A stretch of DNA of 64,000 bases from an uncultured Rickettsiales bacterium (GTDB lineage Bacteria; Myxococcota_A; UBA796; UBA9615; CAYRNR01): NCBI GenBank assembly GCA_964436045.1, contig CAYTBN010000027.1, positions 1,409 through 65,408 of the forward strand. Reading direction: 5' to 3'. This document shows positions 11,876-63,262 of this stretch, piece after piece. The number at the start of each line of letters is the position of its first letter. Within the stretch, counting starts at the first letter, position 1. Under the pieces are notes generated by a model. The model ran no database searches. It was not told where the DNA came from and saw only the letters and a program-made list of their open reading frames with translations. A program made the translations under genes and the position numbers.

Positions 11876-11888
11876 TTTGGGGTAGACG

Positions 11889-25572: not shown

Positions 25573-25724
25573 CGTCACCTCCCGGATCGACCCACGATCG
25601 AGGGCCCATGCCACGCTGTCAACCGATTCCGGCGGAGCCAGCGGCCGTGTCGCGTGTTAGAATGGCGGGGCTTCGCACTGGGGACACGGATCTTCGGCGC
25701 CGCGCGCCGGGAGCCTCGACACGA

Positions 25725-47134: not shown

Positions 47135-47135
47135 G

Positions 47136-49601
47136 TCACAGCTCCCCCAGGCGTGAGGCCGCCTTGTCGTAGTACGTGAACCCGTCGCCACGGGGGGCGA
47201 TCGCCATCACCTGCTCGTACGACTCGCGCGCGGACTCGACGCCCCCGCCGCGTTCGGTCTGGTACCCCTCCAGGTAGATACCCTTGGCGATCTCCTCGAG
47301 CTCCTTGCGTCCGGCCGAGATGCCCTTGTGGCTCGACCACGCCTTGCGCCCCGAGCTCCATTCGAAGTTGGCCTTGGCGTACTTGCCGTTGTCGAAGGCC
47401 TCCCGACCACGCCGGTAGCGGCACTCGGCCAAGCCCTGTCGGATCTCGTCCCGCCGGTTGTTGCTGCCTTCCATCCGCGTGACGTTCTTGTACGAGGACT
47501 CGAAGCGGTCCAACGCCGCGTCCAGCTCACCGCGGTCCATCGCCTTGTTGCCGGCGGCGAAGGCCCGCTCGACGCGGTCGAGGCGGCCGAGCACGTCCTG
47601 CAGCTCGAGCTTCTGCCCGGGATCGGAGGCCGTGTCGATGGCCCGCTCGAGGGTGGATCGCGCCTGCTCGACATCGCCCGCCGTATAGGCCGATATTGCC
47701 TGTTCGGCGACCTTCTCGGCCGAGCTCGAGGAGCGGCGTTCGTCCCGCGACGAGCGATCGCGGTCACGGTCCCGATCGCGGTCACGGTCACGGCCCGCCT
47801 CCTGCGCGGGGGTACTGTCCTCGGTCGCCACCGTTTCGGGGATGCCAGCGGTGTCCAGCTCCCGCCCCAGGTTCTCCTTGTACTGCTCGATCAGCTTCTT
47901 GCGCTTCCGCGGCTTGGCCTCGGCGATGGACCTCAGCTCATCGGGCCCGCTGACCGCGGGGTCGTAGGCCTCCGCCCCGTCCAGCGAAGCGAGGGCGTCG
48001 TCGATGTTGTCGTTCTCGAGGGCCACCACCGCCTCGTCCACCATCCGGCGGGCCACCAGCGGGATCATCGGCTCCACCAGCGACTTGGCCTGGATGAAGT
48101 AGCAGGAGGTGGCCGGAATACTCTTGTAGGCCTCGTAGGCACGGCCGAAGTCCAGATGCACGCTGGACTGGCTGTACAGCTTGACGAACTCCTGGACGTC
48201 CCCCAGCCGGGACAGGTTGTCCCGCTCCTGGGCGATGTTCTGGAGGTAGGCCTGGGCCTCGGTGTAGCGGGGATCGATATCGATCAACTGAACCAGGTAG
48301 CCCTCGGCGGTGTCCCAGTCCTGCTCGTCGTACGAGGCCGCCCCCGCCAGGTACATCGGCTCCATGTCGCGGCGGGTGTTGCCCGCACCGAAGTTGAACA
48401 TGTAGCCGGCGGCCTGGAACAACAGCGCGAGCACGATCACGACGCCGACAGATCCCAGGATCGCCAGCTGCCAGGTGCGGAACTGGAGCCCCCCCACCGC
48501 CACGAGCCCCTTCTTCGCGGGCTTGGCTGCGGTCTGGGCAACCGGCGCGGCCTGACGCGGAGGCGCCGTCTGGGGCCCCAGGGTCGCGCCGGCCTGGACG
48601 CTCGGTGGCAACGCGCTCACTTCGCGCATGGTCGCCGCGGTGCGACCGCTGCGAGAGGGCGGGCCGGGTGTCAGTGCCTGGGTCGGATGGCCGGACGGCG
48701 GCAGCGGCGCCGCCGCACTCATCTGGGCTGCGAGGGACGCTGGCGCAGCCTCGCCTGGCCGCCGGAAGAGCATCAGCACGCCGCCGATCTGCAGGCGCGT
48801 CCCGTTGATCAGCTCCGCCTGGGCGACGTCCTGGCTGTCCACCCGGATTCCGTTGGTGGACCCGGTGTCCTTGACCACGTACCGTCCGCCGTCCAGGTCG
48901 ACCCTGGCGTGCTGGCGGGACACGAACGGGTCGTCCAGTACCAGGTTGTTGCGGCTGCCGGCGCCGATGGTCACACCCCGACTCCCGACCGTGATCATGT
49001 GCCCCTTGCCGTCGCCGTCGACGATCTCGAGATAGGCGTGACCCTCGCGCGCGGTCATTCCACTCTCGGTCGCCCGCACGACGTCGGCCGGCGAGGCCCC
49101 CCCCGGCGCCCGTCCGGCGAGGGGGTCGGTCATGGGCATCGAGCGGGCGAACTGGCCCGGCGGAGTGGCGGGGGGCTGTGCCGGTGCCGCCTCCACGGGA
49201 TCCAGCAGGTCGGAGACATCCGCGTCCGCCGGCGAAGGGGCGCCCGGATCGAAGGCCTCGGGGACCGGCGAGCTGCCCTTGGGCCGCAGGTAGCCCGGCA
49301 GCCCCTCGTCGCCCTCGGCGAACACCAGTTCGTAGGGGCCTACCCGGATCCGGTCGCCGGTGGAGATGGCCACCTCGCCGTCGACCCGGATCCCGTTGAT
49401 CAGGGTGCCGTTGGACGAGTTGAGGTCCTTTGCGGCAAACCCGCCATCCTGCTTGATGATCTGACAATGGAACTTGCTGACCTGGCGGTCGCCGAGCACG
49501 AGGTGGTTGCGACTGTCCCGGCCGACGGCGAACTCGTCCCGGTCGACCGGGCGGGAGAAGCTCCGCCCGTCGGCCGTACTGACGGTGATCTGCGCCGTCA
49601 T
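47136..49601 (-). CDS. Double-FHA-domain membrane protein with C-terminal TPR-like domain
   Basis: Two FHA cores are present: FAVGRDSRNHLVL...SSNGTLINGIRV and ITVGSRGVTIGAGSRNNLVL...STNGIRV. A Pro/Ala-rich linker follows. One TM helix is present (LAILGSVGVVIVLALLF). A (DR)5 low-complexity tract and helical TPR-like repeats follow. Confidence 0.75.
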   Translation of the reverse strand: MTAQITVSTADGRSFSRPVDRDEFAVGRDSRNHLVLGDRQVSKFHCQIIKQDGGFAAKDLNSSNGTLINGIRVDGEVAISTGDRIRVGPYELVFAEGDEGLPGYLRPKGSSPVPEAFDPGAPSPADADVSDLLDPVEAAPAQPPATPPGQFARSMPMTDPLAGRAPGGASPADVVRATESGMTAREGHAYLEIVDGDGKGHMITVGSRGVTIGAGSRNNLVLDDPFVSRQHARVDLDGGRYVVKDTGSTNGIRVDSQDVAQAELINGTRLQIGGVLMLFRRPGEAAPASLAAQMSAAAPLPPSGHPTQALTPGPPSRSGRTAATMREVSALPPSVQAGATLGPQTAPPRQAAPVAQTAAKPAKKGLVAVGGLQFRTWQLAILGSVGVVIVLALLFQAAGYMFNFGAGNTRRDMEPMYLAGAASYDEQDWDTAEGYLVQLIDIDPRYTEAQAYLQNIAQERDNLSRLGDVQEFVKLYSQSSVHLDFGRAYEAYKSIPATSCYFIQAKSLVEPMIPLVARRMVDEAVVALENDNIDDALASLDGAEAYDPAVSGPDELRSIAEAKPRKRKKLIEQYKENLGRELDTAGIPETVATEDSTPAQEAGRDRDRDRDRDRDRSSRDERRSSSSAEKVAEQAISAYTAGDVEQARSTLERAIDTASDPGQKLELQDVLGRLDRVERAFAAGNKAMDRGELDAALDRFESSYKNVTRMEGSNNRRDEIRQGLAECRYRRGREAFDNGKYAKANFEWSSGRKAWSSHKGISAGRKELEEIAKGIYLEGYQTERGGGVESARESYEQVMAIAPRGDGFTYYDKAASRLGEL

Positions 49602-51019
49602 CTACGGGCGTCCTTCATCGCCTGCTCGATCTGCGCAAGCTCGCGGGCGGCGTACTGGAAGCGCTCATCGGTCTCATCGTCGATGAGCCGCATGATGAAT
49701 CCCAGCTCCTCCTGGCCCTCCCGGTAGTTCCCGGCGCGCTTGAGCTTCTGGTAGTGAAACAGCGCGTCCCGATGCTTCTGGTCGCGCAGGTCCTCGGCCT
49801 CCCGCAGCTTGGCCTCCACGTCCGCGACCAGCGAGCCGGGCTCCCCCAGCAGTTGCAGGGTGGCATTGGAGTTTCGCAGCTGCTGGATCGCCTGCGTCAG
49901 GTTCCCGTCCTGGAGGTGGTGCTCCTCGAGCTTCTTGCTGCCCACGTCCAGGTACTTCTGTGCGTCCGCCCGCAATTCGGCGTCCGACCGTCCCGCCCGG
50001 TCGCCCACGATCACCGGTGCCGACGAGCCACCCGCCTCGCCCCGGTCATAGGTCGCGGTGCCGGCGGTGCCGGCTCCCGGCACGATGGCATCCTTCCAGG
50101 CCCAGAGCGCCAGCAGCAGCATCACCAGCAACATCGCGGCGCGCACACCGTTGCTCTGCAGCGGGGACTTCTTGCTCTTCTGGCGGGCGGTGACCCCGTC
50201 GGCCATGCCGTCGGTCGCCTCCTGGATCGCCACCGACAATCGGCGCGGGTCCAGCTCGTCGAGCTCTGCTTGATCCTGGGCCGGTTTGCTGGGATCGGTC
50301 AGGATGACCGCCTGGCTGGGGCCCGGCTGCGCGACCGGCGCGGGCGCGCAGCCGGGCAGCACCCGTGTGTGCTCGTCGTCGCCGCGCCCGGGCACGCCGA
50401 GCTGGGCCGCGCCGCTGGCTGCGGCGGGCTGGGCCACCGGGCTGCCGAGGAGCTGGGGGGCCGCGGGGGCACTCTCCTTGGACCGGCCGCGCGGCAGCAC
50501 CTGGGTGTGCTGGTCGTCGGGCCGTCCGGGATCCTCCAGGTCGTCCGCCGGCTCCAGCGGTGCGTTGGGCACCAGATCCAGCGAGTCCTCGTCGTCGTCG
50601 TCGAGGCCGTCCAGGCTGATCTCGGGCATCGCCGGGCCGGGCGCCAGCGGATCGGGCGCGCTCCTCGCCCCGGCACCCCGGCTGGCGCGGTAATCCAGCG
50701 TCCGCGGCCCGGTCTGCTCCGGCCGGCTCAGATCGGGGTCGAAGCGCAGCTTGTAGTCGCAGACCGTGATCTCGTCGCCGGCCTTCAGCTCGACGTTGCT
50801 GACCTTCTCGCCATTGACGTGGGTCGGGTTGCGGCTGTGGCCCACCACCAGCACCGCCCGGGCGGCCTGGGCGTGGATCGCGCAGTGCACCCGGGAGACC
50901 GACGGGTCGTCGAAGACGATCTCGCAGCCGCGATCCCTGCCGATCCGGATCACCTGGGAGCGGAAGGTCACCAGCGGACCGGTCTCACGCTTGTCCAGGA
51001 TCTGGATCTTCACCGGCAT
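49598..51019 (-). CDS. FHA-domain membrane protein
   Basis: Start MPVKIQILDK. The FHA core is IRIGRDRGCEIVFDDPSVSRVHCAI...NPTHVNGEKV. An acidic disordered region and one TM helix (AAMLLVMLLLALWAW) follow. The C-terminus is coiled-coil-like. Confidence 0.7.
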   Translation of the reverse strand: MPVKIQILDKRETGPLVTFRSQVIRIGRDRGCEIVFDDPSVSRVHCAIHAQAARAVLVVGHSRNPTHVNGEKVSNVELKAGDEITVCDYKLRFDPDLSRPEQTGPRTLDYRASRGAGARSAPDPLAPGPAMPEISLDGLDDDDEDSLDLVPNAPLEPADDLEDPGRPDDQHTQVLPRGRSKESAPAAPQLLGSPVAQPAAASGAAQLGVPGRGDDEHTRVLPGCAPAPVAQPGPSQAVILTDPSKPAQDQAELDELDPRRLSVAIQEATDGMADGVTARQKSKKSPLQSNGVRAAMLLVMLLLALWAWKDAIVPGAGTAGTATYDRGEAGGSSAPVIVGDRAGRSDAELRADAQKYLDVGSKKLEEHHLQDGNLTQAIQQLRNSNATLQLLGEPGSLVADVEAKLREAEDLRDQKHRDALFHYQKLKRAGNYREGQEELGFIMRLIDDETDERFQYAARELAQIEQAMKDARR

Positions 51020-51036
51020 GGGTCCGCGCTGCTCGT

Positions 51037-51945
51037 TCACACCAGGTCCCCGTTCATGTAACGCACGATCAGCGGGCCGAACATGGTCAGGAACACCGCG
51101 ATCAAGATCATCAGGATCGGGAACAGGATCTTGATGGTCGCCTCGGCTGCGATCTTCTCGGCCCGCTGGGTCCGCTTCAACCGGTTGGCCTGGGCCTGCA
51201 CCTGGAGGATCCGGGACAGCGGCGTCCCCATCGCCTCGGCCTGCACCACCGCGCCGACCACGGAGGTGACGTACTCGGACTGGATTCGATCCGACATGTT
51301 CAGCAGGGCCTCGCGCCGGGTCACACCGAGCCGGATCTCCTGCAGCACGTAGTGCAGCTCCTCGATCAGCGGGCCCTTCTGGCTCTCCTTGCTGACCACC
51401 GAGTCCAGGGCGGTGTTGAAGTCCAGCCCGGCCCCCAGGCTCAAGCTCAGCAGGTCGAGCACGAAGGGCAGGTGGCGGTTGACCGCCGACAGCCGGCGAA
51501 TGATCAGATCCTCCATGTAGAGGAAGGGCAGGTAGGCGCTGATCATCCCCGGGATCATCGCCAGCAATGGGCTGGCGCCGCCGAGCCCCACCGCGGTGAA
51601 GGCGATGCCGAACAGCATGCCGCTGATCCCGGCACACACGCAGGTGGCCAGGAACTCGTCGGGGGTGAATCCGCCCGGGTGACCGGCGCGGGCCAGCTTG
51701 ACCTTGAGTCCCGCTCGGACCTTGTCCAGATCCAGCGTCCCGATCCAGTAGGTGGGGATGAAGATCAGGATCCGGAGCATCACGTAGGCCTGGTTGCTGT
51801 CGGCCAGCTGCTGGCGCTTGAAAGCAACGAACCCCTTCTCGGGCGCCTCGCCGTCCCAGTCCTCGTCGGGGGCCATCGCCCGCACGGCCGCGTAGACCGC
51901 CAGGAACAGGACCGCGGATGCGAACAGGCCGTAGATGTACAGCAT
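51037..51945 (-). CDS. TadC/GspF-like inner-membrane platform protein
   Basis: T2SSF-domain features (LGAGLDFNTALDSV...QAEAMGTPLSRIL) and three TM segments. Confidence 0.8.
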   Translation of the reverse strand: MLYIYGLFASAVLFLAVYAAVRAMAPDEDWDGEAPEKGFVAFKRQQLADSNQAYVMLRILIFIPTYWIGTLDLDKVRAGLKVKLARAGHPGGFTPDEFLATCVCAGISGMLFGIAFTAVGLGGASPLLAMIPGMISAYLPFLYMEDLIIRRLSAVNRHLPFVLDLLSLSLGAGLDFNTALDSVVSKESQKGPLIEELHYVLQEIRLGVTRREALLNMSDRIQSEYVTSVVGAVVQAEAMGTPLSRILQVQAQANRLKRTQRAEKIAAEATIKILFPILMILIAVFLTMFGPLIVRYMNGDLV

Positions 51946-52805
51946 CAGATGTCCGCCGCCAGGATCCGCCGGATGAGGAACACGCCGACGGCCTCGAAGG
52001 CCAGGATCAGGAAGATGATCACGTAGCCCTTTGGATCGGTGAACAGCTCGGAGATGTACTCGGGATCGATCAGATAGACGGCGAAGGCGAAGGCGGCCGG
52101 CATGCCACCGATGACCCAGCCCTGGAGCTTACCCTGGGCGGTCATGGTCTTGATCTTCTCCTCCAGGCGGAAGATCTCGCGGATCGCCGACGAGGTGTCC
52201 TCGAACACCTGGGGCACGTTGCCGCCGTGGACCCGGGTGATCAGGATCCCGGTCATCACCATGTCGAAGAACCGGCTGCGCAGCCGGTTGCCCATCTTGA
52301 CCAGCGCCTCCTCCAGGGTCAGCCCCAGCTTGTGCTCCTTGAGCATCAGCCGGAACTCCTGGTTGATGGGCGGCTCCATGGAGTCGGAGACCACGTCCAT
52401 TGCCTGGGTCAGCACCAGGCCGGCGCGCATGGAGTTGGCCATCGACTGCAGGGCGTCGATCAGCTGCTGGTCGAACTTCTCCATCCGCTTCTGGCGGGCG
52501 CGTCGCAGCAGGAAGGTGGGCACGAAGTAGGCCAGCCCGGCGATCACGATGGCCCCGAACCAGCCGATGAAGTTGGCCACACCCAGGAAGACCAGGATCA
52601 TGAAGGCGATGTGGTAGACGAAGAACCGCTTGGGCGAGAACTCGATGTACAGGTCGTCCAGCTGGGAGCCGACCCAGTCCACGTAGCGCGCATAGAAGTC
52701 GTCGAGCTTCTGGGTCACCCAGCGTCCGTTGAGCGCCACCACCAGGAGCATGGTCACCAGGAAGCCCAGCACCACCAGGATCAGGAACGGGGTCGAGGTC
52801 CACAT
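51945..52805 (-). CDS. TadB/GspF-like inner-membrane platform protein
   Basis: T2SSF-domain features (MANSMRAGLVLTQAMD...) and TM segments. Its stop and start are adjacent to the flanking genes. Confidence 0.8.
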   Translation of the reverse strand: MWTSTPFLILVVLGFLVTMLLVVALNGRWVTQKLDDFYARYVDWVGSQLDDLYIEFSPKRFFVYHIAFMILVFLGVANFIGWFGAIVIAGLAYFVPTFLLRRARQKRMEKFDQQLIDALQSMANSMRAGLVLTQAMDVVSDSMEPPINQEFRLMLKEHKLGLTLEEALVKMGNRLRSRFFDMVMTGILITRVHGGNVPQVFEDTSSAIREIFRLEEKIKTMTAQGKLQGWVIGGMPAAFAFAVYLIDPEYISELFTDPKGYVIIFLILAFEAVGVFLIRRILAADI

Positions 52806-54406
52806 CAGAGGAACTCCCCGTCGGTGATGATGCCGCGCGCCACCAGGTCGGGGATGAAGGTCGGGATGTAGCCGGTGGTCTTGGTCTCCCCCATCACCGT
52901 GCCGTCCTCGGCCAGCCCATGCCGCAGGAAACGGAAGATCGGCTCGACCACGAAGTCGCCGTGCTCGTCCAACCGGGTCACCTCGGCGACCTCGGTGACC
53001 TTTCGGCTGCCGTCGCTCAGCCGCTCCTGGTGGACGATCAGATCGATCGCCGACGTGATCTGGTGGCGGACCGCGGAGATGGGCAGATCCATGCCGCTCA
53101 TCAGCACCATGGTCTCCAGCCGCGCGAGCATGTCCGACGTGGAGTTGGAGTGGCCGGTGGTCAGCGAGCCGTCGTGACCGGTGTTCATCGCCTGGAGCAT
53201 GTCCAGGGCCTCACCGCCGCGGCACTCTCCGACGATGATGCGGTCGGGCCGCATGCGCAGGGAGTTCTTGACCAGGTCGCGGATCGTGAATTCGCCCCGG
53301 CCCTCGATGTTGGCCGGCCGCGCCTCCAGGCAGACCACGTGCTCCTGGTCCAGTCGCAGCTCCGCCGAGTCCTCGATGGTGACGATCCGCTCCTTGTCAG
53401 GGATGAAGGTACTCAGCACGTTGAGCAGGGTGGTCTTGCCGCTACCGGTTCCGCCGCTGACCAGCACGTTGCAGCGCCCGCGCACCGCCCGCTGCAGGAA
53501 GCGGGCGATCTGGGGGGTCATCGTGTTGAACCCGATCAGGTCTTTCATCGTCAGCGGGTCGCGGCGGAACTTGCGGATGGTGATGCACGGGCCACGGATC
53601 GCCAGCGGCGGGATGATCGCGTTGACGCGGCTGCCGTCCTTGAGCCGGGCGTCCACCAGCGGCGATGACTCGTCGATCCGCCGGCCCAGCGGGGTGACGA
53701 TCCGCTCGATGACCGCCCGGATGGCATCGTTGCTGGTGAAGGTCTTGTCCGTCAGGGTGATCTTGCCGAGCTTCTCGATGTAGATCAGGTCCTTGCAGAC
53801 CACCATCACCTCGGTGATGTCGTCGTCCTTGAGGAAGTCCTCCAGCGGGCCGAGCCCCAGTGCCTCGTCGAGGATCTCCTTGACCAGCACCGCCCGGTCG
53901 ACGTGCTCCGGGATGGAGACCTTGCCGGCTCCGATGATCTCCTCGAGGGCCTGCTTGGACTGGCGGAAGACCTCCTCCTCGCCCAGGGCCTCGATATCGA
54001 GCCGCTTGAGGTCCAGGTGGTCCAGCAGCGTGTCGTGCATCGTGCGCTTGGTCTGCAGAACCGGGTCGTCCGCGCGCCGTTCGGCGATGGACGGGCCGCC
54101 GACCCGCGCGTCGGCGCTCACCAGGTCGACCTCGACCCGGCAGTCGCCGAGGATCACGTCGTCGCCCTCGCGCAGCATGACGTAGGAGTCGATGGGGGCA
54201 CCGTTGACCAGCGTGCCGTTGACGCTGGCGTCGATCAGCGACACCTCCTCGTCGTTGAAGAACACCCGTGCGTGCTGGCGGGAGACCGCCGGCGAGTTGA
54301 GCACGAGCTCGTTGGCATTGGGATCACGGCCGATGCGCACGGGCGAATTGGCGAACACCCGTTCCTGGACCTGACCATCCGAGCCGAGGTACCGCACTCT
54401 GAGCAT
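52805..54406 (-). CDS. FHA-domain-fused CpaF/TadA-family secretion ATPase
   Basis: The N-terminal FHA is VRIGRDPNANELVLNSPAVSRQHARVFF...SVNGTLVNGAPI. The C-terminal ATPase has Walker A GGTGSGKTTLLNVL, IIVGECRGGEALD and MNTGHDGSLTTGHSNS. Confidence 0.85.
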   Translation of the reverse strand: MLRVRYLGSDGQVQERVFANSPVRIGRDPNANELVLNSPAVSRQHARVFFNDEEVSLIDASVNGTLVNGAPIDSYVMLREGDDVILGDCRVEVDLVSADARVGGPSIAERRADDPVLQTKRTMHDTLLDHLDLKRLDIEALGEEEVFRQSKQALEEIIGAGKVSIPEHVDRAVLVKEILDEALGLGPLEDFLKDDDITEVMVVCKDLIYIEKLGKITLTDKTFTSNDAIRAVIERIVTPLGRRIDESSPLVDARLKDGSRVNAIIPPLAIRGPCITIRKFRRDPLTMKDLIGFNTMTPQIARFLQRAVRGRCNVLVSGGTGSGKTTLLNVLSTFIPDKERIVTIEDSAELRLDQEHVVCLEARPANIEGRGEFTIRDLVKNSLRMRPDRIIVGECRGGEALDMLQAMNTGHDGSLTTGHSNSTSDMLARLETMVLMSGMDLPISAVRHQITSAIDLIVHQERLSDGSRKVTEVAEVTRLDEHGDFVVEPIFRFLRHGLAEDGTVMGETKTTGYIPTFIPDLVARGIITDGEFL

Positions 54407-54443
54407 CGCTAACCGATCCTCCGTTCGTCGCGCCGACGGGCCA

Positions 54444-55613
54444 CTAGGGCCACATCTTCATCTCGCGATACTCCTCGATGTTGCGGTCGATCAGGTCCCG
54501 GTTCTCATCGCCGTCGGGCTCGATCAGGTACGGGGTGATGAAGATCACGCCGTCGGTGTCGTCCTTGCTGAAGTTCCGGGTGCTGAAGAAAGCGCCGAGC
54601 AGTGGGACCTCGGACAGCCAGGGCATGCCCGCGACCTCACGCTTGCTCTTGTGCCGTACCACCCCGGCCAGGGCCAGGCTCTGGCCCTCCTTGAGCAGCA
54701 CGGTGGTCTCCTGCTTCTTGTTGCTCAGGGTGTAGACACCGGACTCGAACGAGGTGATGTCGGAGATCTCGTAGTTGACCTGCAGGTGAACGTTGTCGCG
54801 CCGGTCGATGCGCGGCGTGGCCTCCAGGATGACCCCGAACGGCCGCTCGACCAGGTTGACCGTGCTCTGGGTCTGCACCGGGATCAGCAACACGCCGCCG
54901 TACTCGTAGTGGGTCGTCTCGCCGTGGAGCACCGTGGCCTCGTGGGACTCCCACACCCGGGTGAAGGCCTGCTGGGCGTCGAAGTTGACCAACTGATCCA
55001 GCTGCACGGTCGGGCCGTTTCGGACCACGTCCATCCAGTTGAAGACCATCGTGGCCAGGTTGCCCGACAGGTTCATCCCGTATTCCTTGGCCTTCTCGCG
55101 ATCGACCTCGACGAAGTCGAACGCCAGCCGGAACATGGGCTTGAGGTCCACGGCCTTGGGATCCAGCCGGGCCAGGTTGACCACCACGTCGTAGGCCGCG
55201 GCGATCCCGTTGATGCGCTCCATGTCGTCCGAGGTCAGCACCTCGCCGGAGACCAGCAACCTGCCGCCGACGATGTTGACCGAGATGCCCTCGACGTCGA
55301 TCAGCATGTCCTCGATCGTGTCGCGCAGCTCGTCGAGGCTGTCCTCGGAATAGACCGTGATCTTGTAGGTCGTGTCGCCGACGGTGACCGACGAGTAGCC
55401 GGCCGCAATCGCCTTGAGCACCACCTGATTCCCCTTGGCGATGACCTTGACGATCTTCTCGTTGCCGGGGATCACCGTGGTGCGCTGGGACACAGAGACC
55501 ACGTGGGTGTCCCCGACCTTCATCGAGAGTGTCTCCTCCTCGGCGCTCGCCGTCGCGGCGAGAATCAGCAGGAGGAGGAACAACAGCGGCGCGATTGCGT
55601 TTCGTACCTTCAC
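54444..55613 (-). CDS. Secretin (CpaC/RcpA-like), short form
   Basis: Signal peptide MKVRNAIAPLLFLLLLILAATASA. The C-terminal secretin domain contains GMPWLSEVPLLGAFFS...VIFITP. 389 aa. Confidence 0.8.
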   Translation of the reverse strand: MKVRNAIAPLLFLLLLILAATASAEEETLSMKVGDTHVVSVSQRTTVIPGNEKIVKVIAKGNQVVLKAIAAGYSSVTVGDTTYKITVYSEDSLDELRDTIEDMLIDVEGISVNIVGGRLLVSGEVLTSDDMERINGIAAAYDVVVNLARLDPKAVDLKPMFRLAFDFVEVDREKAKEYGMNLSGNLATMVFNWMDVVRNGPTVQLDQLVNFDAQQAFTRVWESHEATVLHGETTHYEYGGVLLIPVQTQSTVNLVERPFGVILEATPRIDRRDNVHLQVNYEISDITSFESGVYTLSNKKQETTVLLKEGQSLALAGVVRHKSKREVAGMPWLSEVPLLGAFFSTRNFSKDDTDGVIFITPYLIEPDGDENRDLIDRNIEEYREMKMWP

Positions 55614-55620
55614 GTCAACC

Positions 55621-56439
55621 TCAGCGGATGATGTTGATCAGCTCGTTGCGCTTCGTCTGGACCTGGTTGCGCTTCTTCTCGCCGAAGACGTCGCTGAAGT
55701 CCTTGGGCGGCAGCGCCAACTCGGTGGTGATGTCGTTCTCGTTGCGCAGGGACAGCGCGATCTTGCCCTTGTCGACCGAGAAGGTGAGCAGCTCCGCCTC
55801 CTCGGGGGTGACCAGCACGGTCACGGTCTGGTAGCCGCGGCCCGAGGTGGACTCCGACGAGCCCCGCTCCTTGCTGCCCAGGCGGGCACCCACCGCCAGC
55901 ACGGTCACGTTCTGCAGCAGGGTGATGGTGACCCACTCCTTCTTCTCGGGCTTCATGAAGGTGCCGAGGATGTCCACGTGGTCGTTGGGCTGGAGCAGGC
56001 CGCCCATGGAGGAGACCTGGTCGACCGGGATCGACATCGCCCGCCACCCCTCCTTGACCACCTGGTCCAGCTCCACGTCGGAGCGCGGGTCGGAGAAGTC
56101 TGTCCACAGCAGGGTCTGCCCCTCGCGGATGGTATGGGCCACCCGCTGGCCGACGATCCGCTCCCACTCGTTGATGAACACCGACTGCGGGTGCACGTAG
56201 GACTCGGGCACCTCGATCTGCGTCAGCATGTCGTGGGAGATGGGTTTGTCTGCTGCGATGTCGAACTTGGCGGCGACCAGGGTCACCTTCTCACCGGCGA
56301 CGCCGTACTTGGCCGCCAGCTGCTGGGTATAGATGTACAAGAGCAGCACCGCGAGGATCGCCAGACCGAGGGAGACCAGCAACACCTTCCGTCGATTGGA
56401 GGGTACACCGCTGGTCGCATTCTGCTTGTTGTCCGCCAC
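55621..56439 (-). CDS. CpaB/RcpC-like Flp pilus assembly protein
   Basis: N-terminal TM (VLLVSLGLAILAVLLLYIY) and a SAF/CpaB-like periplasmic region. Confidence 0.65.
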   Translation of the reverse strand: MADNKQNATSGVPSNRRKVLLVSLGLAILAVLLLYIYTQQLAAKYGVAGEKVTLVAAKFDIAADKPISHDMLTQIEVPESYVHPQSVFINEWERIVGQRVAHTIREGQTLLWTDFSDPRSDVELDQVVKEGWRAMSIPVDQVSSMGGLLQPNDHVDILGTFMKPEKKEWVTITLLQNVTVLAVGARLGSKERGSSESTSGRGYQTVTVLVTPEEAELLTFSVDKGKIALSLRNENDITTELALPPKDFSDVFGEKKRNQVQTKRNELINIIR

Positions 56440-56503: not shown

Positions 56504-57535
56504 TCAGTTCAGCGAGCCCGGCGGGCCGGTGACCACCACGGTGGTCACCGTGGTGCGGGTCTCCGGATCCTCCGTCGCCGTCACATGACACTGCTGCCGT
56601 CCGCGGACGAAGAGTGCCGACGGGGCGGAGCCACCCGCCGCTGCCGCCTCCGCGACCCTGGAATCTTCCGACCAATCGTACTGCGGAAGCTGGGTCGAAT
56701 AGAAGTCCAGGACCGACATTGCGTCGCGCGCGGACTGATACTGGCCCATGTGGACCAGCATCGAGCCGCTGTCCTGGGAGAACGACAGGAGGCGCACGTC
56801 ACCGGGTACGCGGGGTACGTCGGGGGGATCGGAACCGGGGGCGTCGTCCTCGCCATCGGTGGACACGGCGCGCACGTCGAAGTCCTCGGAGGGCCAGGCG
56901 GCCATCACGGTGGTCGAGCGGGCGCCGGGCTGGCGCAGGGCCAGGACGAACTTGGCGTCGCCCAGGTCCGAGATGCGCCCGCTGGCCGCGGCGGCCTCGG
57001 CCCGGCGGTTCATCTCCTCGGCCCAGCCCGGCTCGTCCCAGTCCGGGATCACGGCGGTGCCGTAGATCCCCCAGGTGCCGGCGTCGATGCGGGTCCCGCG
57101 GCGGCCGATGCGCTCGTTCATCTGCTCGCGGAGCCGATCCCAGTCCTCGCCTTCGATGTCGGGGTTCTTCGGGCTGTCCCCTCCCAGTTCGCCGGGAGGT
57201 CCCCCGTAGAGGTCCTCGTAGTAGTCCAGGACCTCGTCGACGGTGCGCCAGTCGTTCTCGAGGGTGTAGTAGATGCGGTTTCCGTTGAGGGTCGCGGCCT
57301 GTACCGAGCCCGGATCGACCTGCAGGTCCCACACCGACGGCACGCCAGCGAACGCGTCTCCCAGGGACTGGAAGACCGTGGCCTCGGCCGGCGGATTCAG
57401 CGGGGAGTTGGCATGACCGAACCAGAACACGGCCAGCGCGAAGGCGACGATCGCCGCCAGCCGCCAGGCCCGGTCCAGGATCGACCTGGACCCGCCCGAA
57501 CTAGAAGCACCAGTCGCAGAGTCCGTAGATCTCAT
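56504..57535 (-). CDS. Hypothetical single-pass membrane protein within Tad-like locus
   Basis: TM (LAAIVAFALAVFWF) then an acidic periplasmic domain of about 290 aa. No known motif. The start may be downstream of the track start, which overlaps tadE by 35 nt. Confidence 0.45.
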   Translation of the reverse strand: MRSTDSATGASSSGGSRSILDRAWRLAAIVAFALAVFWFGHANSPLNPPAEATVFQSLGDAFAGVPSVWDLQVDPGSVQAATLNGNRIYYTLENDWRTVDEVLDYYEDLYGGPPGELGGDSPKNPDIEGEDWDRLREQMNERIGRRGTRIDAGTWGIYGTAVIPDWDEPGWAEEMNRRAEAAAASGRISDLGDAKFVLALRQPGARSTTVMAAWPSEDFDVRAVSTDGEDDAPGSDPPDVPRVPGDVRLLSFSQDSGSMLVHMGQYQSARDAMSVLDFYSTQLPQYDWSEDSRVAEAAAAGGSAPSALFVRGRQQCHVTATEDPETRTTVTTVVVTGPPGSLN

Positions 57536-58121
57536 TGTATGCCCACATGTCCAGGTACGCCTCGTAGCCCCAGAGCACCACGTTGCCCTCGATGTCCTCG
57601 TAGTCCCAGTTCCCGATCGCGATCTTGTGCGTGCGCGTCACGTTGATGTTGCTGGCGTAGGGCAGCAGCGAGTTGCGGATCGGCTGGACCACCGTGGCCT
57701 CGTAGTGAGTGTCGACGGGCGCGATCCCGGTGGCCAGCATGGTGGCGATCTGGCTGTAGTTGATCAGCCCGGTCGGGTTGGTGAGGCCGCCCGGATCGGG
57801 GAATTGCAGAAAGATCGACGGGTCGAAGTCGCTGAGGTTCTCCAGGGTGTCGTTGGAGGCACTGCCGGAGATCGACGCCCCGGCCAGCTTGAAGTCGTTC
57901 TGTGCCTTGGCGGACGCCGCCGACAGGCTGTGGTTCGGGTCGTGGCGCCCGGCCTTCCAGGCCACGTAGCGTACGGCGATCTGGGCGTTCTGCTCCTGAT
58001 AGTAGGCCTTGCCGAAGTGGATGATCCCCATGATCAGGACCAGGAAGATCGGCAGGGTCACGGCGAACTCGACCGTGGCCTGCCCGCGGACGTCTTCGCG
58101 CAGTCGGCGGATGGCTCTCAT
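57501..58121 (-). CDS. TadE-like pseudopilin
   Basis: N-terminus MRAIRRLREDVRGQATVEFAVTLPIFLVLIMGII is the TadE signature. Confidence 0.75.
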   Translation of the reverse strand: MRAIRRLREDVRGQATVEFAVTLPIFLVLIMGIIHFGKAYYQEQNAQIAVRYVAWKAGRHDPNHSLSAASAKAQNDFKLAGASISGSASNDTLENLSDFDPSIFLQFPDPGGLTNPTGLINYSQIATMLATGIAPVDTHYEATVVQPIRNSLLPYASNINVTRTHKIAIGNWDYEDIEGNVVLWGYEAYLDMWAYNEIYGLCDWCF

Positions 58122-59455
58122 CAGTGGGTGATCACGATCTGGGTAAGGTCACTGAGGCCCGCGACCCACAACGATATCCGACCCGCCGCGCCGATGTCCG
58201 GGGGCATCGGCAGCCCCGGCGTCGTCAGCATGTAGTCGGTCATGAACAGGGGCATGTCTCCCAGCTTGGACACGGGCACCAAGTGGGCGTGCCAGCGGGG
58301 GACGAACATGTTGCCGTCTTGGGTGTTGGTGACCTCGGCCTGGGCCACCGTGATCATCCCGAACACCTCGTTGTACGGGTTGTTGAAGTGGTCGGGCAGG
58401 GCGATGACCTCGCCCTGCTCGGGCGAATCGTAGCCGATGGCGACGTACTGGGCGGAGTCCGGGAACTCGTCGTCCAGGATCAGCGGATTGGCCTTGCCGG
58501 TGTCCGTGTAGTCCGACAGGCTCGGGTACCACCACAGCCCCTGGCACTCGACCAGGTAGTACCAGGCCACGTTGGTCTCCCACCACGTGTTGCCCTTGGC
58601 CAGGGGCGCCATCTTGCCGAACAGCATCTGGTAGGGCAGCTGCTGGGTCGGGCTGCCCAGCGGACCGTTGGCCCAGTGGGGATAGGCCGCCAACGCCGGG
58701 GCGTACGCGTCCTCGGGATAGGCCGTGATGGCGTAGTACAACATCGCAGACACGGCGGCGGTCTTGATGCCGGCGTCCTCCCACAGGTCGTAGCCGCCGT
58801 CGTCGCCGTTGGCCATCGTCTCGCACAGATCGGTCATCTCCCCCTCTTTGAGGGGCATCTCGTTGGGCCACACGAAGGCGTAGTCCAGCCCGTTCTCCTG
58901 GGCCAGCATCGTGCCCTCGGTCATCGCCATCGCCTCGAAGCCGTCGCGTACCCCCTCGGCGACGGTCGTCAGATCGTCCATCCGTGTGAAGAGGAACTCG
59001 ATCTGATCGTCCAGCGGTGGCCAGCCGGCCATCAGCAGCTGGATCCCGACCATCGCGCAGTTCCACTCCTCGATGATCGACTGCCAGCAGCGGCCGAAGT
59101 CGAGGTCGCACCAGGGATCGCAGAAGCACGAGGCGTTGGCTGCGGCCATGTCGGCCGACTCCAGCACCGCCCAGGTGATGGACTCGGTGAAGATCGCCTC
59201 GGCGAGCAACATCGACTTCATGATGTTGGTCATCGCGATCAGGTTCATGCCGCGGGCTTCCCAGGTGGCCGCGCTGATGGCGGCCGAGTCGACCGCGTTC
59301 TGCGCCGTCACCTTGTGGGTCAGGTGGCGGCCATTGTTCAGCATCAGGATCACGAACGAACAGATCAGGAACCCGGTCAGGGCCACGAAGGCCATGGTCT
59401 GGCCGTCGCGCCTGTGGTGGAGCGACATCGCCCGGCGAACCAGCGTGCGCATCAC
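58121..59455 (-). CDS. TadG-like (Tad_N) pilus-associated protein
   Basis: N-terminus RRDGQTMAFVALTGFLICSFVILML is the TadG/Tad_N-type hydrophobic start. Large Cys/Trp-rich periplasmic domain. Confidence 0.65.
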   Translation of the reverse strand: MMRTLVRRAMSLHHRRDGQTMAFVALTGFLICSFVILMLNNGRHLTHKVTAQNAVDSAAISAATWEARGMNLIAMTNIMKSMLLAEAIFTESITWAVLESADMAAANASCFCDPWCDLDFGRCWQSIIEEWNCAMVGIQLLMAGWPPLDDQIEFLFTRMDDLTTVAEGVRDGFEAMAMTEGTMLAQENGLDYAFVWPNEMPLKEGEMTDLCETMANGDDGGYDLWEDAGIKTAAVSAMLYYAITAYPEDAYAPALAAYPHWANGPLGSPTQQLPYQMLFGKMAPLAKGNTWWETNVAWYYLVECQGLWWYPSLSDYTDTGKANPLILDDEFPDSAQYVAIGYDSPEQGEVIALPDHFNNPYNEVFGMITVAQAEVTNTQDGNMFVPRWHAHLVPVSKLGDMPLFMTDYMLTTPGLPMPPDIGAAGRISLWVAGLSDLTQIVITH

Positions 59456-60423
59456 GGGGTCTCCAGGGTCAGGGTGCAGGTGGCGTTGATCGCCGTGTAG
59501 CTACCCGGCGCGAACTCCAGCAACGAGAACTCCGAGGGCAGGGTGCCCATCTCGTCGATCAGCTGGGCCGCCAGCGGGATGTTGAGGTGGAAGCAGTGGG
59601 TGACCTGCACGGTGATGTCGTCGTGGGGATTGAAGGTGACCACGTCGCCCGGGGCGGCCACCACCGAGGTGCCGCCTCCGCTGACGGTGACGAACTTCAC
59701 CACGGTGCAGAAGTACGAGTAGGCGAACCGATCCGCATAGTCGAGCACCTGGACCGCGCCCGGGATCACCGACAACATGCTGGTGATGGCGTTGACCACG
59801 TCCATCACCAGCCCTCCCACCAGGGGCAGCCCGGCCAGCACGTGGCTGGCGCGCCGGGAGATCGGCACGCAGGCGATGACCGCGGAGTTCTTGATGTTGG
59901 AGTACTTCTCGTTGCCGGTCGACAGGGTGATCTTGTTGACCTCCTCGTCGGCCTCCATCGGGATCCAGACGATGGCGGAGCGGGCGGCGGCGTAGGCGGC
60001 GTACAGCGTCACGTTCTTGGCGTTGTACATCAGCGACATCTGGGCCACGCCCATCACGACCATCATCAGCGCCCAGAAGATGATCACGAACTCGGTGATC
60101 GCCTGACCGGCCTGGGCCCGTCGCAGCTTGACCAGCCCGCGGAAGGGCGACATCGGGCTGGAGACCAGCAGCGACATCCGCCACACCAGCAGGACCAGCG
60201 ATCCCACGGCCAGGGAGATCCCGATCGCGAGGCCGGTCGGGGCGCCGGTGAACGAGACGTTGGCGATCACCCCCGGTGCCACCGGCCCCGACCCGGAGAG
60301 CAGGCGCGCAGGCGAGGGTGCGAACAGCTGGATGCTCGCGAAGCAGGCGGCGGACACCCCCACGAAGGTCAGCAGGATCCGGAGGACTGTGGTCAAGCGG
60401 TTCGGCATTTTTCCCGCAACCAT
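59452..60423 (-). CDS. TadE-like protein with unusual N-terminal two-TM extension
   Basis: The TadE motif RRAQAGQAITEFVIIFWALMMVVMGV is internal, about 120 aa into the ORF. The preceding in-frame region has strong GC3 coding bias and two TM helices. Start uncertain (candidates 60474, 60423, 60408, 60177, 60153). Confidence 0.55.
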   Translation of the reverse strand: MVAGKMPNRLTTVLRILLTFVGVSAACFASIQLFAPSPARLLSGSGPVAPGVIANVSFTGAPTGLAIGISLAVGSLVLLVWRMSLLVSSPMSPFRGLVKLRRAQAGQAITEFVIIFWALMMVVMGVAQMSLMYNAKNVTLYAAYAAARSAIVWIPMEADEEVNKITLSTGNEKYSNIKNSAVIACVPISRRASHVLAGLPLVGGLVMDVVNAITSMLSVIPGAVQVLDYADRFAYSYFCTVVKFVTVSGGGTSVVAAPGDVVTFNPHDDITVQVTHCFHLNIPLAAQLIDEMGTLPSEFSLLEFAPGSYTAINATCTLTLETP

Positions 60424-60520
60424 CTTATCGGGGCCCTGGCGCTGCCGGGACGGTTTTTTGCAAACTCCTCGCATCCGCGCTGCCCGCGCACGGGGTTGCG
60501 CACGGAGGCGCACACGTTTC

Positions 60521-60540
60521 TTTAATATTTACAGTAACTT
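60521..60540 (-). promoter_or_regulatory. AT-rich island (TTTAATATTTACAGTAACTT) in about 190-nt intergenic gap; candidate promoter for the pseudopilin/secretin operon
   Basis: This is the only strongly AT-rich 20-mer in a >68% GC context. It lies upstream (minus-strand sense) of the 59452..60423 gene. Confidence 0.35.
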
Positions 60541-60616
60541 GGGAGGGGCTGGCCCATAGTGAACTACATACAGAACACCCCTGGGGCCGGCACTGTACGG
60601 GGGCAGATGGCGGGTT

Positions 60617-62155
60617 TCAGCGTTTCCGGGGTGCAACCGAGACCCGGCAGTCGCCCGCAGGCGGCGGGATCCCGGAATCGCGCCGCAGGTAGAGCAACCG
60701 GCCGTAGAGCGGGGTCCGCCCGTAGTCCGGGATCAGGGCGCGGTGCAGCCGGTAATCGCGGCCGAGCCGAGGACCGCCGTGAACCCGGCGTTCGACGCTG
60801 GCGCGCAGATCCTCCGCAGCCACCGTCCCCTCGCAGCCCGGGTCCAGCGGCGGCTCGCGCTCGAGGCGCAGCACGATGGCGTCCGGCGCCCGCTCGTCGA
60901 ACAGATAGTCGAGGTCGAAGCGCTTGGCCAGCCGCCCACCGGGGGCGCGGCCGATGACCGGGTCGGTCAGCCCCCCCAGGTCCGTGATCTCCAGGGTGCC
61001 CCGGAAGCCGATCTCGCCGATGTCGATCAGGGCCACGCTGTCGGCGCCTGCTTCGGCCAGCCACTCCTCGATCCGCCGATCCTCGTGGCGGATCGTGCGG
61101 AGGCTGGCGTCCGCCAGTCCGACCACGCGGCTGGCCTCGAGCGCCCCACCGCCGATACAGAGCATGATCAGGGGTAGCACGATGAGCCGCGGTCTCCGGG
61201 ACCCGGTCAGCAGCGCGGACGATCCCGCAGCAGCGACCGCCAGGGCAGCGTAGCAGGGCAACAGGAAGCGGCCGGCGGGCATCCAGTCGCCGCCCTCGAG
61301 GACCGCCGCGAGGGCCCAGGCCAGGGCCACCGCCAACCACGCCCGGGGCCATTTGCCTCCCACGGCGGCGCCGATCACCGCCAGCGCCAGCAACGGCAGC
61401 GCCCAGGGATCGAGCAGACCATCGAGGAGGTAACGCAGGCCCTCGAGCCGATCTGGCGGCTTGGCAAAGTAGGTATTGGGCAGCCACTCCTCGAACACCG
61501 CGCGGCGGACCACCAGCAGTGCGAGCGCGCTGCCCGCGGCCGCGGTGGCCAGGATCGCCCCCCGCCGGATCACGTCACGCTCCCGGACCACGGTGAGCGC
61601 CGCCGCGAGGGCCACGGGGATCCACATTCCCTCGGGGCGGCACAGGGGCCCGCCCATCGCGGCGGCGGCACCCAGCCAGAGGGGCACGCGGCCCGTCAGC
61701 CCTGCCACCGCCACCAGCGTCAGCGCCACGAACGCCAGGGTCTCCAGCCCGGTCGCGGTGTGGTAGGCCACCGGGCCGCTGATCGCCAGCAACAGACAGG
61801 CGATCCAGGGCGCTGGCCTCCGGGTCTGGTCGGTCACCGCCGCCAGCGCTGCCATCGAGAGCAGCAGGGCCAGACAACCCGCCACGGACGCCGCCCGGGG
61901 GATCGCCTCGACGCCGAAGAACGCGCCAGCGGCCAGATCCAGCGCGAGCCACAGGGGGCTCGAGAACCCCTCGGCGGGCGCGGCCGCCGGCTCGAATGTG
62001 GGTCCATGCCCCGCCAGTACGTTGGCGGCGTAGCGGTGGGTGATGAAGGCGTCATCCAGCTGAAACGGGAGCACCGCCAGTGCCAGCCCGAGACCGCCGA
62101 GCCCGGCCACGAGGGCCGCCAGCATCGCCGTCCGTGTCCCGCGACCGCTGACCAT
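60617..62155 (-). CDS. Multi-pass membrane glycosyltransferase, GT-C fold (PMT_2/ArnT-like)
   Basis: At least 10 predicted TM helices. The first-loop motif FQLDDAFITHRYAANVL resembles the DE/DD-x-x-RYA catalytic loop of GT39/GT83 (PMT/ArnT). A soluble C-terminal domain follows. Start at MVSGRG (62155). Confidence 0.55.
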   Translation of the reverse strand: MVSGRGTRTAMLAALVAGLGGLGLALAVLPFQLDDAFITHRYAANVLAGHGPTFEPAAAPAEGFSSPLWLALDLAAGAFFGVEAIPRAASVAGCLALLLSMAALAAVTDQTRRPAPWIACLLLAISGPVAYHTATGLETLAFVALTLVAVAGLTGRVPLWLGAAAAMGGPLCRPEGMWIPVALAAALTVVRERDVIRRGAILATAAAGSALALLVVRRAVFEEWLPNTYFAKPPDRLEGLRYLLDGLLDPWALPLLALAVIGAAVGGKWPRAWLAVALAWALAAVLEGGDWMPAGRFLLPCYAALAVAAAGSSALLTGSRRPRLIVLPLIMLCIGGGALEASRVVGLADASLRTIRHEDRRIEEWLAEAGADSVALIDIGEIGFRGTLEITDLGGLTDPVIGRAPGGRLAKRFDLDYLFDERAPDAIVLRLEREPPLDPGCEGTVAAEDLRASVERRVHGGPRLGRDYRLHRALIPDYGRTPLYGRLLYLRRDSGIPPPAGDCRVSVAPRKR

Positions 62156-62190: not shown

Positions 62191-62730
62191 TCAGAACAGG
62201 TCCATGTGTCGCAGCAGGTCCAGGTTCTCCAGGCTGGCCCAGATCGTCCCCACCGCGATCGCCACCCCGAAGGGAACCCGCTGGCTGTTGGCCGGATCCA
62301 GCTTCTGGGTCTGCATCGGCATCGCCCAGGTGACCACGGTCCACAGGGTGTTGCGGATCCCCCGCCACAGCACACCCTTCCACAGCATCACCGACACCGC
62401 GAGCACTCCCCCGACCAGGATCGTGTGGAAGAGTCCGCCCACGATCGCGGGATACCCCACGATCGCCCCCGCAGCTCCCATCAGCTTGACGTCGCCGCCC
62501 CCCATGCCGCCGAACAGGAACACCAGGAAGAAGGGCACGAAGCCCACCGCGAGCCCCAGGCCGTGCTGGCCCAGCTCGGGCAAGCCGCCGGCCACCACGG
62601 CCAGGACGAGCCCCAGCGCCACCGCGGGGTAGGTGATCTGGTTGAAGATCTTGCCGGTCGCCAGGTCGCTCAACGCGCACAGCACCATCACGCCGTACAA
62701 GAGCACCTTTTCGGCGACCTCATAGGGCAT
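62191..62730 (-). CDS. Prepilin peptidase CpaA/TadV (A24 family)
   Basis: 179 aa polytopic protein. Asp-containing motifs (LSDLATGKI...GGGDVKLMGAAGA) are typical of TadV/CpaA. Confidence 0.8.
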   Translation of the reverse strand: MPYEVAEKVLLYGVMVLCALSDLATGKIFNQITYPAVALGLVLAVVAGGLPELGQHGLGLAVGFVPFFLVFLFGGMGGGDVKLMGAAGAIVGYPAIVGGLFHTILVGGVLAVSVMLWKGVLWRGIRNTLWTVVTWAMPMQTQKLDPANSQRVPFGVAIAVGTIWASLENLDLLRHMDLF

Positions 62731-62859
62731 CGGTCGGGCCCGCGCAGCCTATGGTGAAACGAGTAGAGAACAAGAGGACGACTCCGAGAAAACGTGCGCT
62801 GGATCCCCAATGGCCTGTGCTATGGTTCCGCTGCACGGAATAGCGGGAAGGTACCACAG

Positions 62860-63054
62860 GTGCATCCGAGCAGCGACGCAACCGAGCGCCGCCCAGTGAG
62901 GCGACGCGACGAGTCGGGTCAGGCGATGACGGAGTACATCCTCGTCGTCGCGATCGCGGTCGTCGGACTGATCCTGGTCAGCAACGCGCTGACCCGCTCG
63001 GTCCTCGCGTACTTCACGATGCAAGCCCTGTGGATCTCTCTGCCCATCATGTGA
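62860..63054 (+). CDS. Flp-family pilin 1
   Basis: The leader ends ...DESG|QAMTEY, with Glu at +5 and Tyr at +6 of the mature peptide and a hydrophobic stretch ILVVAIAVVGLILV. GGGAAGG RBS precedes the GTG start. Confidence 0.75.
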   Translation: MHPSSDATERRPVRRRDESGQAMTEYILVVAIAVVGLILVSNALTRSVLAYFTMQALWISLPIM

Positions 63055-63076
63055 ACAACGTATGGGAGGTCGATCG

Positions 63077-63262
63077 ATGAACGCGCTGGCCAGGCTCCAC
63101 CGGGACGAGACCGGACAGGGGATGACCGAGTACATCCTGATCGTGGTCTTCATCGCGATCGCGGTACTGATCGTGCTGGGCATCTTCAAGGAGCAGATCA
63201 AGCGACTGTTCCGCGGCACCAACACGGAGCTGCAGAACGTCAACGTCGCGCCGACCTCCTAG
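63077..63262 (+). CDS. Flp-family pilin 2
   Basis: Leader MNALARLHRDETG|QGMTEYILIVVFIAIAVLIVLGIF. GGGAGG RBS 7 nt upstream of ATG. Confidence 0.75.
   Translation: MNALARLHRDETGQGMTEYILIVVFIAIAVLIVLGIFKEQIKRLFRGTNTELQNVNVAPTS

Follow-up and report, generated by a model that had tools for sequence, protein, structure and literature searches.

AftB, the terminal β-1,2 arabinofuranosyltransferase of mycobacteria, depends on D62 of its DD motif for catalysis, and the D62A substitution abolishes activity; it contacts a donor analog through T91, E172, R221, T274 and R372, and mutants of R221 and R372 are inactive (PMC12041299). Among enzymes that modify pili, TfpW of Pseudomonas aeruginosa is a GT-C glycosyltransferase that adds D-arabinofuranose (D-Araf) oligomers to pilin Ser/Thr residues of group IV type IVa pili, is encoded next to pilA and requires a DPA gene cluster (bioRxiv 10.1101/2020.04.19.049825). 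Here we describe a 64,000-nucleotide stretch of contig CAYTBN010000027.1 (the window) in which an operon for a Tad (type IVc) pilus contains a glycosyltransferase gene at 60617..62155 on the minus strand, hereafter GT. We are highly confident that GT encodes an AftB-like enzyme of the GT-C superfamily and that the Tad operon carries it as an accessory gene.

Like AftB, the GT protein has 11 transmembrane (TM) helices and a periplasmic C-terminal domain, as well as the DD motif and counterparts of all five donor-contact residues. The deposited AftB chain comprises 669 residues, whereas GT has 512 and a smaller C-terminal domain. The two also differ in setting, as AftB occurs in mycolata that build arabinogalactan or lipoarabinomannan, whereas the host of GT is a diderm member of the Myxococcota with no known arabinogalactan or lipoarabinomannan. 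Because GT is embedded in a pilus operon, its acceptor cannot be the mycobacterial arabinan, on which AftB forms β-1,2 Araf linkages from decaprenyl-phosphate-D-arabinofuranose. The features of the gene are as follows.

60617..62155, minus strand: GT, 512 amino acids, 11 TM helices and a C-terminal periplasmic domain (translation, profile, AlphaFold model and Foldseek)
62051..62056, minus strand: codons of D34–D35, the DD motif that opens the first periplasmic loop, with D35 aligned to catalytic D62 of AftB
61268..61963, minus strand: codon span of S65, E138, R173, T228 and R296, the counterparts of the AftB donor contacts (hidden Markov model alignment)
60620..61051, minus strand: predicted C-terminal periplasmic α/β domain, residues 369–512, with the motif DIG...DLGGLTD (secondary structure of the model)

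Searches with the GT protein alone returned no Pfam family at E ≤ 10, including PF13231 and PF02366, no NCBIfam match and, by single-sequence phmmer, no match in the Protein Data Bank (PDB). We therefore rely on profiles made from 21 GT homologs found with a word index (A1) or from the 12 closer ones (A2). With A1, hmmsearch against the PDB identified a sole relative, AftB from Mycobacterium chubuense (9dlf/9dlh; E = 2.1e-37, 132 bits, profile positions 13–367), an enzyme of CAZy family GT89; the matches after AftB began at E = 2.6 and were unrelated ribosomal proteins. The AlphaFold model computed from this alignment was very confident (predicted local distance difference test (pLDDT) 93.4, predicted template-modeling score 0.92). 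When this model was compared with the PDB by Foldseek, AftB occupied ranks 1–2 (E = 2e-9, template-modeling (TM) score 0.61, 539 alignment columns at ~19% identity), and ranks 3–22 were all GT-C enzymes (ALG12, ArnT, ALG9, AftD, OST/AglB, AftA and Emb). By these ranks and the model, GT has a GT-C_A fold, which is polytopic and marked by a conserved N-terminal TM module and by juxtamembrane helices in loop 1. We also considered a transporter identity and rejected it; matches to folds other than GT-C are interspersed from rank 23 on, with probability <0.5 and TM score <0.2.

The initial annotation had described GT as a GT-C-type membrane glycosyltransferase with a first-loop motif like that of PMT/ArnT enzymes (GT39/GT83), and had suggested O-glycosylation, for example mannosylation, of Flp pilins or other Tad components. 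Its fold class is borne out by the 22 leading structural matches, and its location in the tad locus is also correct, whereas the implied family assignment is wrong and mannosylation is not supported. A PMT/ArnT-type enzyme that O-mannosylates Flp pilins from polyprenyl-phosphate-mannose would share with GT the GT-C(A) fold and, in its first loop on the periplasmic or luminal side, an acidic DD-type motif; ArnT is the fourth fold match (E = 7e-7, TM score 0.57), and 1 of the 21 GT relatives, a distant one, has a weak PMT_2 match (E = 2.3e-4). We nevertheless regard this identity as very improbable: GT matches neither PF02366 nor PF13231 even at the permissive threshold used, the PDB profile search yields AftB and neither PMT nor ArnT, the PMT structures (Pmt4 and Pmt1–Pmt2) are distant in fold and rank 26th or lower (E about 0.1, TM score 0.30–0.46), and the donor-site residues pair one for one with those of AftB. 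Because AftB is both the only profile relative in the PDB and the best fold match, nothing points to mannosylation.

The family to which GT belongs is large and has no Pfam model in the copy that we searched. An exhaustive profile search identified 27,831 cluster representatives at E ≤ 1e-3, including 1,984 at E ≤ 1e-30. Hosts of the GT homologs include Myxococcota, Acidobacteriota, Aminicenantes and Anaerolineae, and three of the homologs carry the JGI label 'arabinofuranosyltransferase'.

The translation of GT consists of 512 codons plus a stop and begins MVSGRGTRTAM.... The mechanically called open reading frame (ORF) extends upstream to 62680 (687 amino acids) and there overlaps, in another frame, the Peptidase_A24 gene at 62191–62730. 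This extension is present in no homolog; the homologs start at or near the ATG at 62155, and P0001 starts at Met11. The existence of homologs, a ratio of nonsynonymous to synonymous divergence (dN/dS) of 0.40–0.52 against syntenic orthologs and the high pLDDT of the model together indicate that GT is a real gene and not a chance ORF.

To relate GT to the biochemistry of AftB, we counted residue pairs along the A1 alignment, in which the AftB chain numbering reproduces D61–D62 and is therefore the numbering of the published study (PMC12041299). D61/D62 of AftB correspond to D34/D35 of GT, T91 to S65, E172 to E138, R221 to R173, T274 to T228 and R372 to R296. D34, D35, E138, R173 and R296 are invariant in all 21 homologs of A1, and among the 12 sequences of A2, T228 never varies and at least 90% retain S65. 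The A2 alignment also reveals invariant positions in the C-terminal domain (D378, I379, G380, D392 and G395–D398). This domain is modeled as a mixed α/β fold with seven strands, and its similarity to the AftB cap is weak (a second profile stretch aligns to AftB 516–555 with an independent E value of 12).

The motif at the start of the first loop, reported in the initial annotation as DD-AFITHRYA, is present as LDDAFITHRYA (residues 33–43) and aligns with the catalytic Asp motif that AftB carries in its first periplasmic loop. In the model, TM1 comprises residues 10–29, and D34–D35 follow it on the periplasmic side, where GT-C_A enzymes have their catalytic Asp at the tip of juxtamembrane helix 1. 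Short Arg-rich loops (residues 109–113, 155–158, 188–198, 266–271 and 316–323) alternate with the loops that carry conserved motifs, and the N terminus carries R5 and R8, from which we deduce an N-in topology. Together with these loops, the hydropathy peaks are consistent with a cytoplasmic N terminus and a periplasmic C terminus, and the peaks, along with the 11 helices and C-terminal α/β domain of the model, agree with the earlier description of a polytopic protein. The DD, TGLET, RPEG, LPNTYFAK and EGGDWMPxxR motifs and the C-terminal domain are thus predicted to face the periplasm, as in AftB. The likeness to AftB in sequence, fold and donor-site residues argues that GT is a GT-C(A) enzyme whose donor pocket is probably built for a polyprenyl-monophosphate sugar. 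GT probably takes a single sugar from such a carrier on the periplasmic face of the membrane, with R173 and R296 probably holding the donor phosphate and D35 probably serving as the catalytic nucleophile or base.

GT lies in a single operon of Tad-type genes, listed below from the divergent pilin genes to the end of the conserved block.

63062..63262, plus strand: Flp pilin 2, motif G|QGMTEY, mature form ~48 amino acids, C-terminal tail GTNTELQNVNVAPTS (Pfam Flp_Fap 8.3e-6, below the gathering score); homologs start at Met6 (63077)
62794..63054, plus strand: Flp-like pilin 1, prepilin motif G|QAMTEY, start codon uncertain (ORF with orthologs at the same position in syntenic loci; no Pfam match)
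62191..62730, minus strand: prepilin peptidase, Peptidase_A24 (PepA24), CpaA/TadV/KilA-like (Pfam E = 6e-18)
59452..60513, minus strand: TadE-like minor pilin 1 (TadE1), likely start 60423 (323 amino acids), motif G|QAITEF (Pfam TadE 7e-9, residues 136–178 of the long ORF)
58121..59455, minus strand: TadG-like minor pilin, 444 amino acids (Pfam Tad 3.1e-5; a homolog is named TadG-related protein [Myxococcota bacterium])
57501..58121, minus strand: TadE-like minor pilin 2 (TadE2), 206 amino acids (Pfam TadE 6.6e-13)
56504..57535, minus strand: conserved operon protein, 343 amino acids, N-terminal membrane anchor (without a Pfam match; in all syntenic loci, including those without GT)
51037..56439, minus strand: Tad machinery core (Pfam), comprising the next five genes
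55621-56439, minus strand: RcpC/CpaB (Pfam)
54444-55613, minus strand: short secretin, 389 amino acids (Pfam)
52805-54406, minus strand: FHA-fused TadA/CpaF ATPase, FHA-T2SSE (Pfam)
51945-52805, minus strand: TadB, T2SSF (Pfam)
51037-51945, minus strand: TadC, T2SSF (Pfam)
49598..51022, minus strand: FHA-domain protein at the end of the conserved operon block (Pfam FHA 1.4e-16; same position in L001, L004 and L062)

The peptidase gene sits upstream of GT on the same strand with a gap of 35 bp, and in L001 the peptidase stop overlaps the GT start. We saw no terminator-like site on the coding strand between GT and its neighbors, and GT is probably cotranscribed with the prepilin peptidase gene. 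The two Flp genes are divergent from GT and lie about 640 bp away. The Pfam assignments confirm the earlier placement of GT between prepilin peptidase and pseudopilin genes, an order that is conserved in relatives.

Several features of this operon recall the Kil system of Myxococcus xanthus, a Tad-like apparatus for contact-dependent killing (PMC8460266, PMC12075869). By gene signatures alone, the two share an FHA-fused ATPase, a short secretin, several FHA proteins, a short prepilin peptidase and a trio of TadE/TadG/TadE-type minor pilins. The M. xanthus Kil genes are split between two clusters, whereas the window operon is single.

Comparison with relatives shows that GT occupies a defined slot. 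We found eight variants of GT, 49–100% identical and all with an intact frame, in the same slot within one Myxococcota lineage; we refer to these variants inside tad operons as the tad clade. The shared gene order is Flp, Flp and, divergently, PepA24, GT, TadE, TadG, TadE, an unknown protein, RcpC, secretin, FHA-ATPase, TadB, TadC and FHA. Syntenic operons carry GT at 81% (P0002), 60% (P0003), 57% (P0004), 55% (L008) and 49% (P0008) identity, and the order PepA24–GT–TadE–TadG–TadE holds in every context recovered for tad-clade variants between 49% and 81% identity. Starting from the TadG-like gene, we also located sister operons that lack GT. In L063, from a metagenome-assembled Myxococcota genome with a TadG 46% identical to that of the window, the peptidase gene is followed directly by TadE across a 137-bp gap (6899-7036), and the slot is empty; in L062 (TadG 57% identical), the slot holds a 686-residue soluble pseudokinase/DUF4388 protein (4834-6894). 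Because the slot is variable in L062 and L063, we consider GT a lineage-specific accessory insert and not a core Tad component.

L008 and L009, the two GTDB representative genomes with the syntenic operon, are titled 'uncultured Rickettsiales bacterium', and this name looks wrong. Proteins at least 90% identical to the window DnaK, Obg and CpaF are labeled Myxococcota bacterium, and the GC content of 64–74% and the gene content (Zn-ribbon/TPR and FHA proteins and Ser/Thr kinases) also fit Myxococcota.

GT has diverged far more than the operon around it. Identity between the window and L009 is 100% for Flp2, 97% for RcpC and the secretin, 96% for Flp1, 95% for TadB and TadC, 94% for TadG, 93% for TadA and TadE2, 92% for PepA24, 89% for TadE1 and 87% for the 343-residue protein, but 60% for GT. 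In the same comparison, calculated by the Nei–Gojobori method, GT has dN 0.32, dS 0.77 and dN/dS 0.42, whereas the neighboring tad genes have dN 0.00–0.09, dS 0.06–0.45 and dN/dS 0.00–0.22. These values indicate that GT is under purifying selection and hence functional, with much weaker constraint and deeper divergence than the rest of the operon. Within the tad clade, mean pairwise identity is highest in the periplasmic loops of GT, which hold the active-site residues (0.69–1.0), compared with 0.33–0.70 in the TM helices (mostly 0.47–0.64) and 0.24–0.69 in four of the five cytoplasmic loops. Divergence thus lies off the catalytic face, a pattern that speaks against decay and equally against diversifying selection at the active site. 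Diversifying selection as the cause of the divergence is not supported, given that the changes sit in TM helices and cytoplasmic loops and the periplasmic loops are conserved.

The same data bear on whether GT is a decaying or noncatalytic passenger whose low identity reflects lost function. The gap between GT and its neighbors in identity and in dN would be expected of such a gene, and the empty slot in the sister lineage indicates that the machine works without it. A passenger, however, would have a dN/dS of about 1 in place of 0.40–0.52, and GT combines an intact frame in all eight variants with invariant catalytic and donor-binding residues, a very confident AlphaFold model and divergence that is concentrated in lipid-facing helices and cytoplasmic loops and spares the periplasmic ones. 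We consider loss of function a remote prospect.

The dS of GT between the window and L009 exceeds that of every flanking tad gene. This excess of synonymous divergence may come from weaker codon bias or from allele exchange. GC at third codon positions (GC3) is 0.885 in GT and 0.92–0.96 in the tad genes. In a base-composition check for horizontal acquisition, GT was above the tad genes at the first and second codon positions (GC1 and GC2) and slightly below them in GC3, and it resembled the housekeeping genes GlmU and Obg of the window.

What GT modifies is a separate question. Tad pilins reside in the inner membrane with their C-terminal part in the periplasm. The five pilin-like proteins of the operon share the processing motif G|Q-x-x-x-E-[YF], and because their C termini and the GT active site lie in the same compartment, the pilins would be within reach of the enzyme. 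The acceptor may be a Tad pilus subunit that awaits assembly in the inner membrane, either Flp pilin 2, at its periplasm-exposed tail, or one of the TadE/TadG tip pilins, and the transferred sugar could be D-Araf or another polyprenyl-phosphate-linked monosaccharide. By analogy, GT might then be the Tad counterpart of TfpW. Retention of GT in its operon slot, the 35-bp gap or overlap with the peptidase gene, the periplasmic active site and the TfpW precedent all speak for a pilin acceptor. We regard it as plausible, though tentatively, that GT glycosylates a Tad pilus subunit as a TfpW-like accessory glycosyltransferase of a Kil-type Tad pilus.

Several observations weigh against this proposal. 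Pfam scans of ~55 window genes revealed no DprE1, DprE2, UbiA-type, GtrA or polyprenyl-phosphate glycosyltransferase genes. The acceptor of AftB is a polysaccharide and not a protein (PMC12041299). The word 'glycosyl' is absent from the two descriptions of Kil, which discuss neither glycosylation nor a glycosyltransferase (PMC8460266, PMC12075869). The sister operons suggest, from their gene content, that the Tad machine does not need GT. In the two GT-less sister operons, the same kind of Flp2 tail reads GTNAELQNVDVSPSP and GTNSELQGVDTAPLSP, compared with GTNTELQNVNVAPTS in the window; the Ser/Thr tail is equally conserved without GT, such that no Flp acceptor signature tracks the enzyme. Comparison of operons with and without GT likewise revealed no Ser/Thr-rich insertion that tracks GT in TadE1, TadG, TadE2 or the 343-residue protein. 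Flp2 ends in PTS in GT-bearing loci and in SPSP or PLSP elsewhere, a difference that involves few loci and is confounded by phylogeny. Because no acceptor signature emerged, the acceptor is assigned from gene position only. Finally, none of the GT homologs at or below 41% identity lies near tad genes (48 distant loci examined within ±10 kb, plus P0009, P0012 and P0011), and the family therefore has no general tie to pili.

These distant homologs occur in heterogeneous surroundings that include oxidoreductases, hydrolases, a sulfatase, sigma factors and occasional other GT-C genes. P0009 lies among ABC-transporter and methyltransferase genes, P0011 among sigma factors, and P0012, on a Myxococcota contig, adjoins GT87 and PMT genes. 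Other GT-C genes neighbor non-tad homologs in L007 (GT87 and PMT/PMT_2, 1838-4660) and L013 (PMT_2, 11673-13307). There are hints here that parts of the family work in glycan assembly lines with multiple GT-C enzymes.

It is accordingly quite possible that GT is an AftB-like GT-C enzyme whose acceptor is not a protein but, for instance, a polysaccharide of the envelope, a glycan of an exopolysaccharide or adhesin, or a glycolipid, and that it sits in the tad operon only for coregulation, for example of a surface glycan needed during pilus deployment, or because it inserted neutrally into a permissive slot. AftB, its sole characterized relative, extends a polysaccharide; the homologs at 34–41% identity reside in unrelated contexts, with the GT-C neighbors in L007 and L013 suggestive of glycan assembly; the slot is permissive, being empty in L063 and filled in L062 by the unrelated pseudokinase/DUF4388 gene; and none of the pilin features correlates with GT. 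Such an acceptor would leave unexplained why the same slot has been kept under purifying selection down to 49% identity and why GT is so tightly coupled to the prepilin peptidase gene, to the point of overlap in L001, and neither the window scans nor the regions within ±10 kb of the syntenic loci contain other polysaccharide-synthesis genes.

If GT does act on pilins, its relationship to TfpW would be one of role. The two GT-C enzymes share 11 TM helices and a DD-type motif in periplasmic loop 1 (DDx, essential in TfpW), and both are encoded by lineage-specific accessory genes inside a pilus gene cluster. TfpW has a C-terminal TPR domain, whereas GT has no TPR match and its modeled domain is α/β; TfpW carries the Emb-like motif YX6PFX7P in periplasmic loop 4, which neither a strict nor a looser regular expression found in GT; and tfpW is directly downstream of pilA in a type IVa locus, whereas GT follows the prepilin peptidase gene in a type IVc (Tad) locus. 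TfpW resembles the Emb enzymes and GT resembles AftB. Given the lack of the TPR domain and Emb-like motif and the different pilus class, any likeness in role would be convergent. The most specific form of our proposal is that one lineage of uncultured Myxococcota recruited an AftB-like GT-C enzyme that depends on a polyprenyl-phosphate sugar into a Kil-type Tad operon, where it glycosylates the Flp tail or the minor pilins of the tip and may use D-Araf or a similar pentofuranose to do so; in this full form we consider it possible but rather doubtful.

Additional features of the region stand apart from these arguments. TadE-like minor pilin 1 has an N-terminal region of ~105 residues with two hydrophobic segments before G|QAITEF, far beyond normal leader length, and this region is conserved in all syntenic loci. 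The gap of ~190 bp between GT and TadE1 (60424-60616, minus strand) contains an AT-rich stretch, TTACTGTAAATATTAAAGAAAC, amid ~70% GC, and L001, L004 and L058 retain a gap of ~160–200 bp at this position, which may hold a regulatory site or an internal promoter. Just past the tad operon are an 821-residue protein with two FHA domains and TPR repeats (47136-49601, minus strand) and a second T2SSE-family ATPase (45998-47191, minus strand), which add to the FHA-rich, Kil-like character of the region. Elsewhere in the window, three CotH kinase-like genes are adjacent (2-817, minus strand; 1087-2781, plus strand; 2265-4421, plus strand), and because the coordinates of the last two overlap, their boundaries need checking. 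A 464-residue protein with an IgGFc_binding domain (PF17517, E = 1.8e-83; 26940-28334, plus strand) adjoins a response-regulator diguanylate cyclase (25608-26888).

Glycosylation of type IVa pilins by locus-encoded enzymes such as TfpW, TfpO and PglL is established and affects pilus stability and phage resistance. The literature that we searched contained no account of a Tad/Flp (type IVc) or Kil locus with its own dedicated glycosyltransferase. Should GT make an envelope glycan, the finding would amount to no more than an accessory gene that occupies a permissive slot of the operon. If, instead, the substrates of GT are Tad subunits, it would be the first glycosyltransferase dedicated to a type IVc pilus, one that came to the role of TfpW independently and by convergence from another GT-C family, and locus-encoded pilin glycosylation would extend to a third pilus class and to a predation-type machine. 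On that reading, GT would have diverged so deeply through shifts in the glycan or acceptor that it favors, on a surface organelle that encounters phages or prey, and the enzyme would provide the first functional handle on the large AftB-like family outside mycolata.

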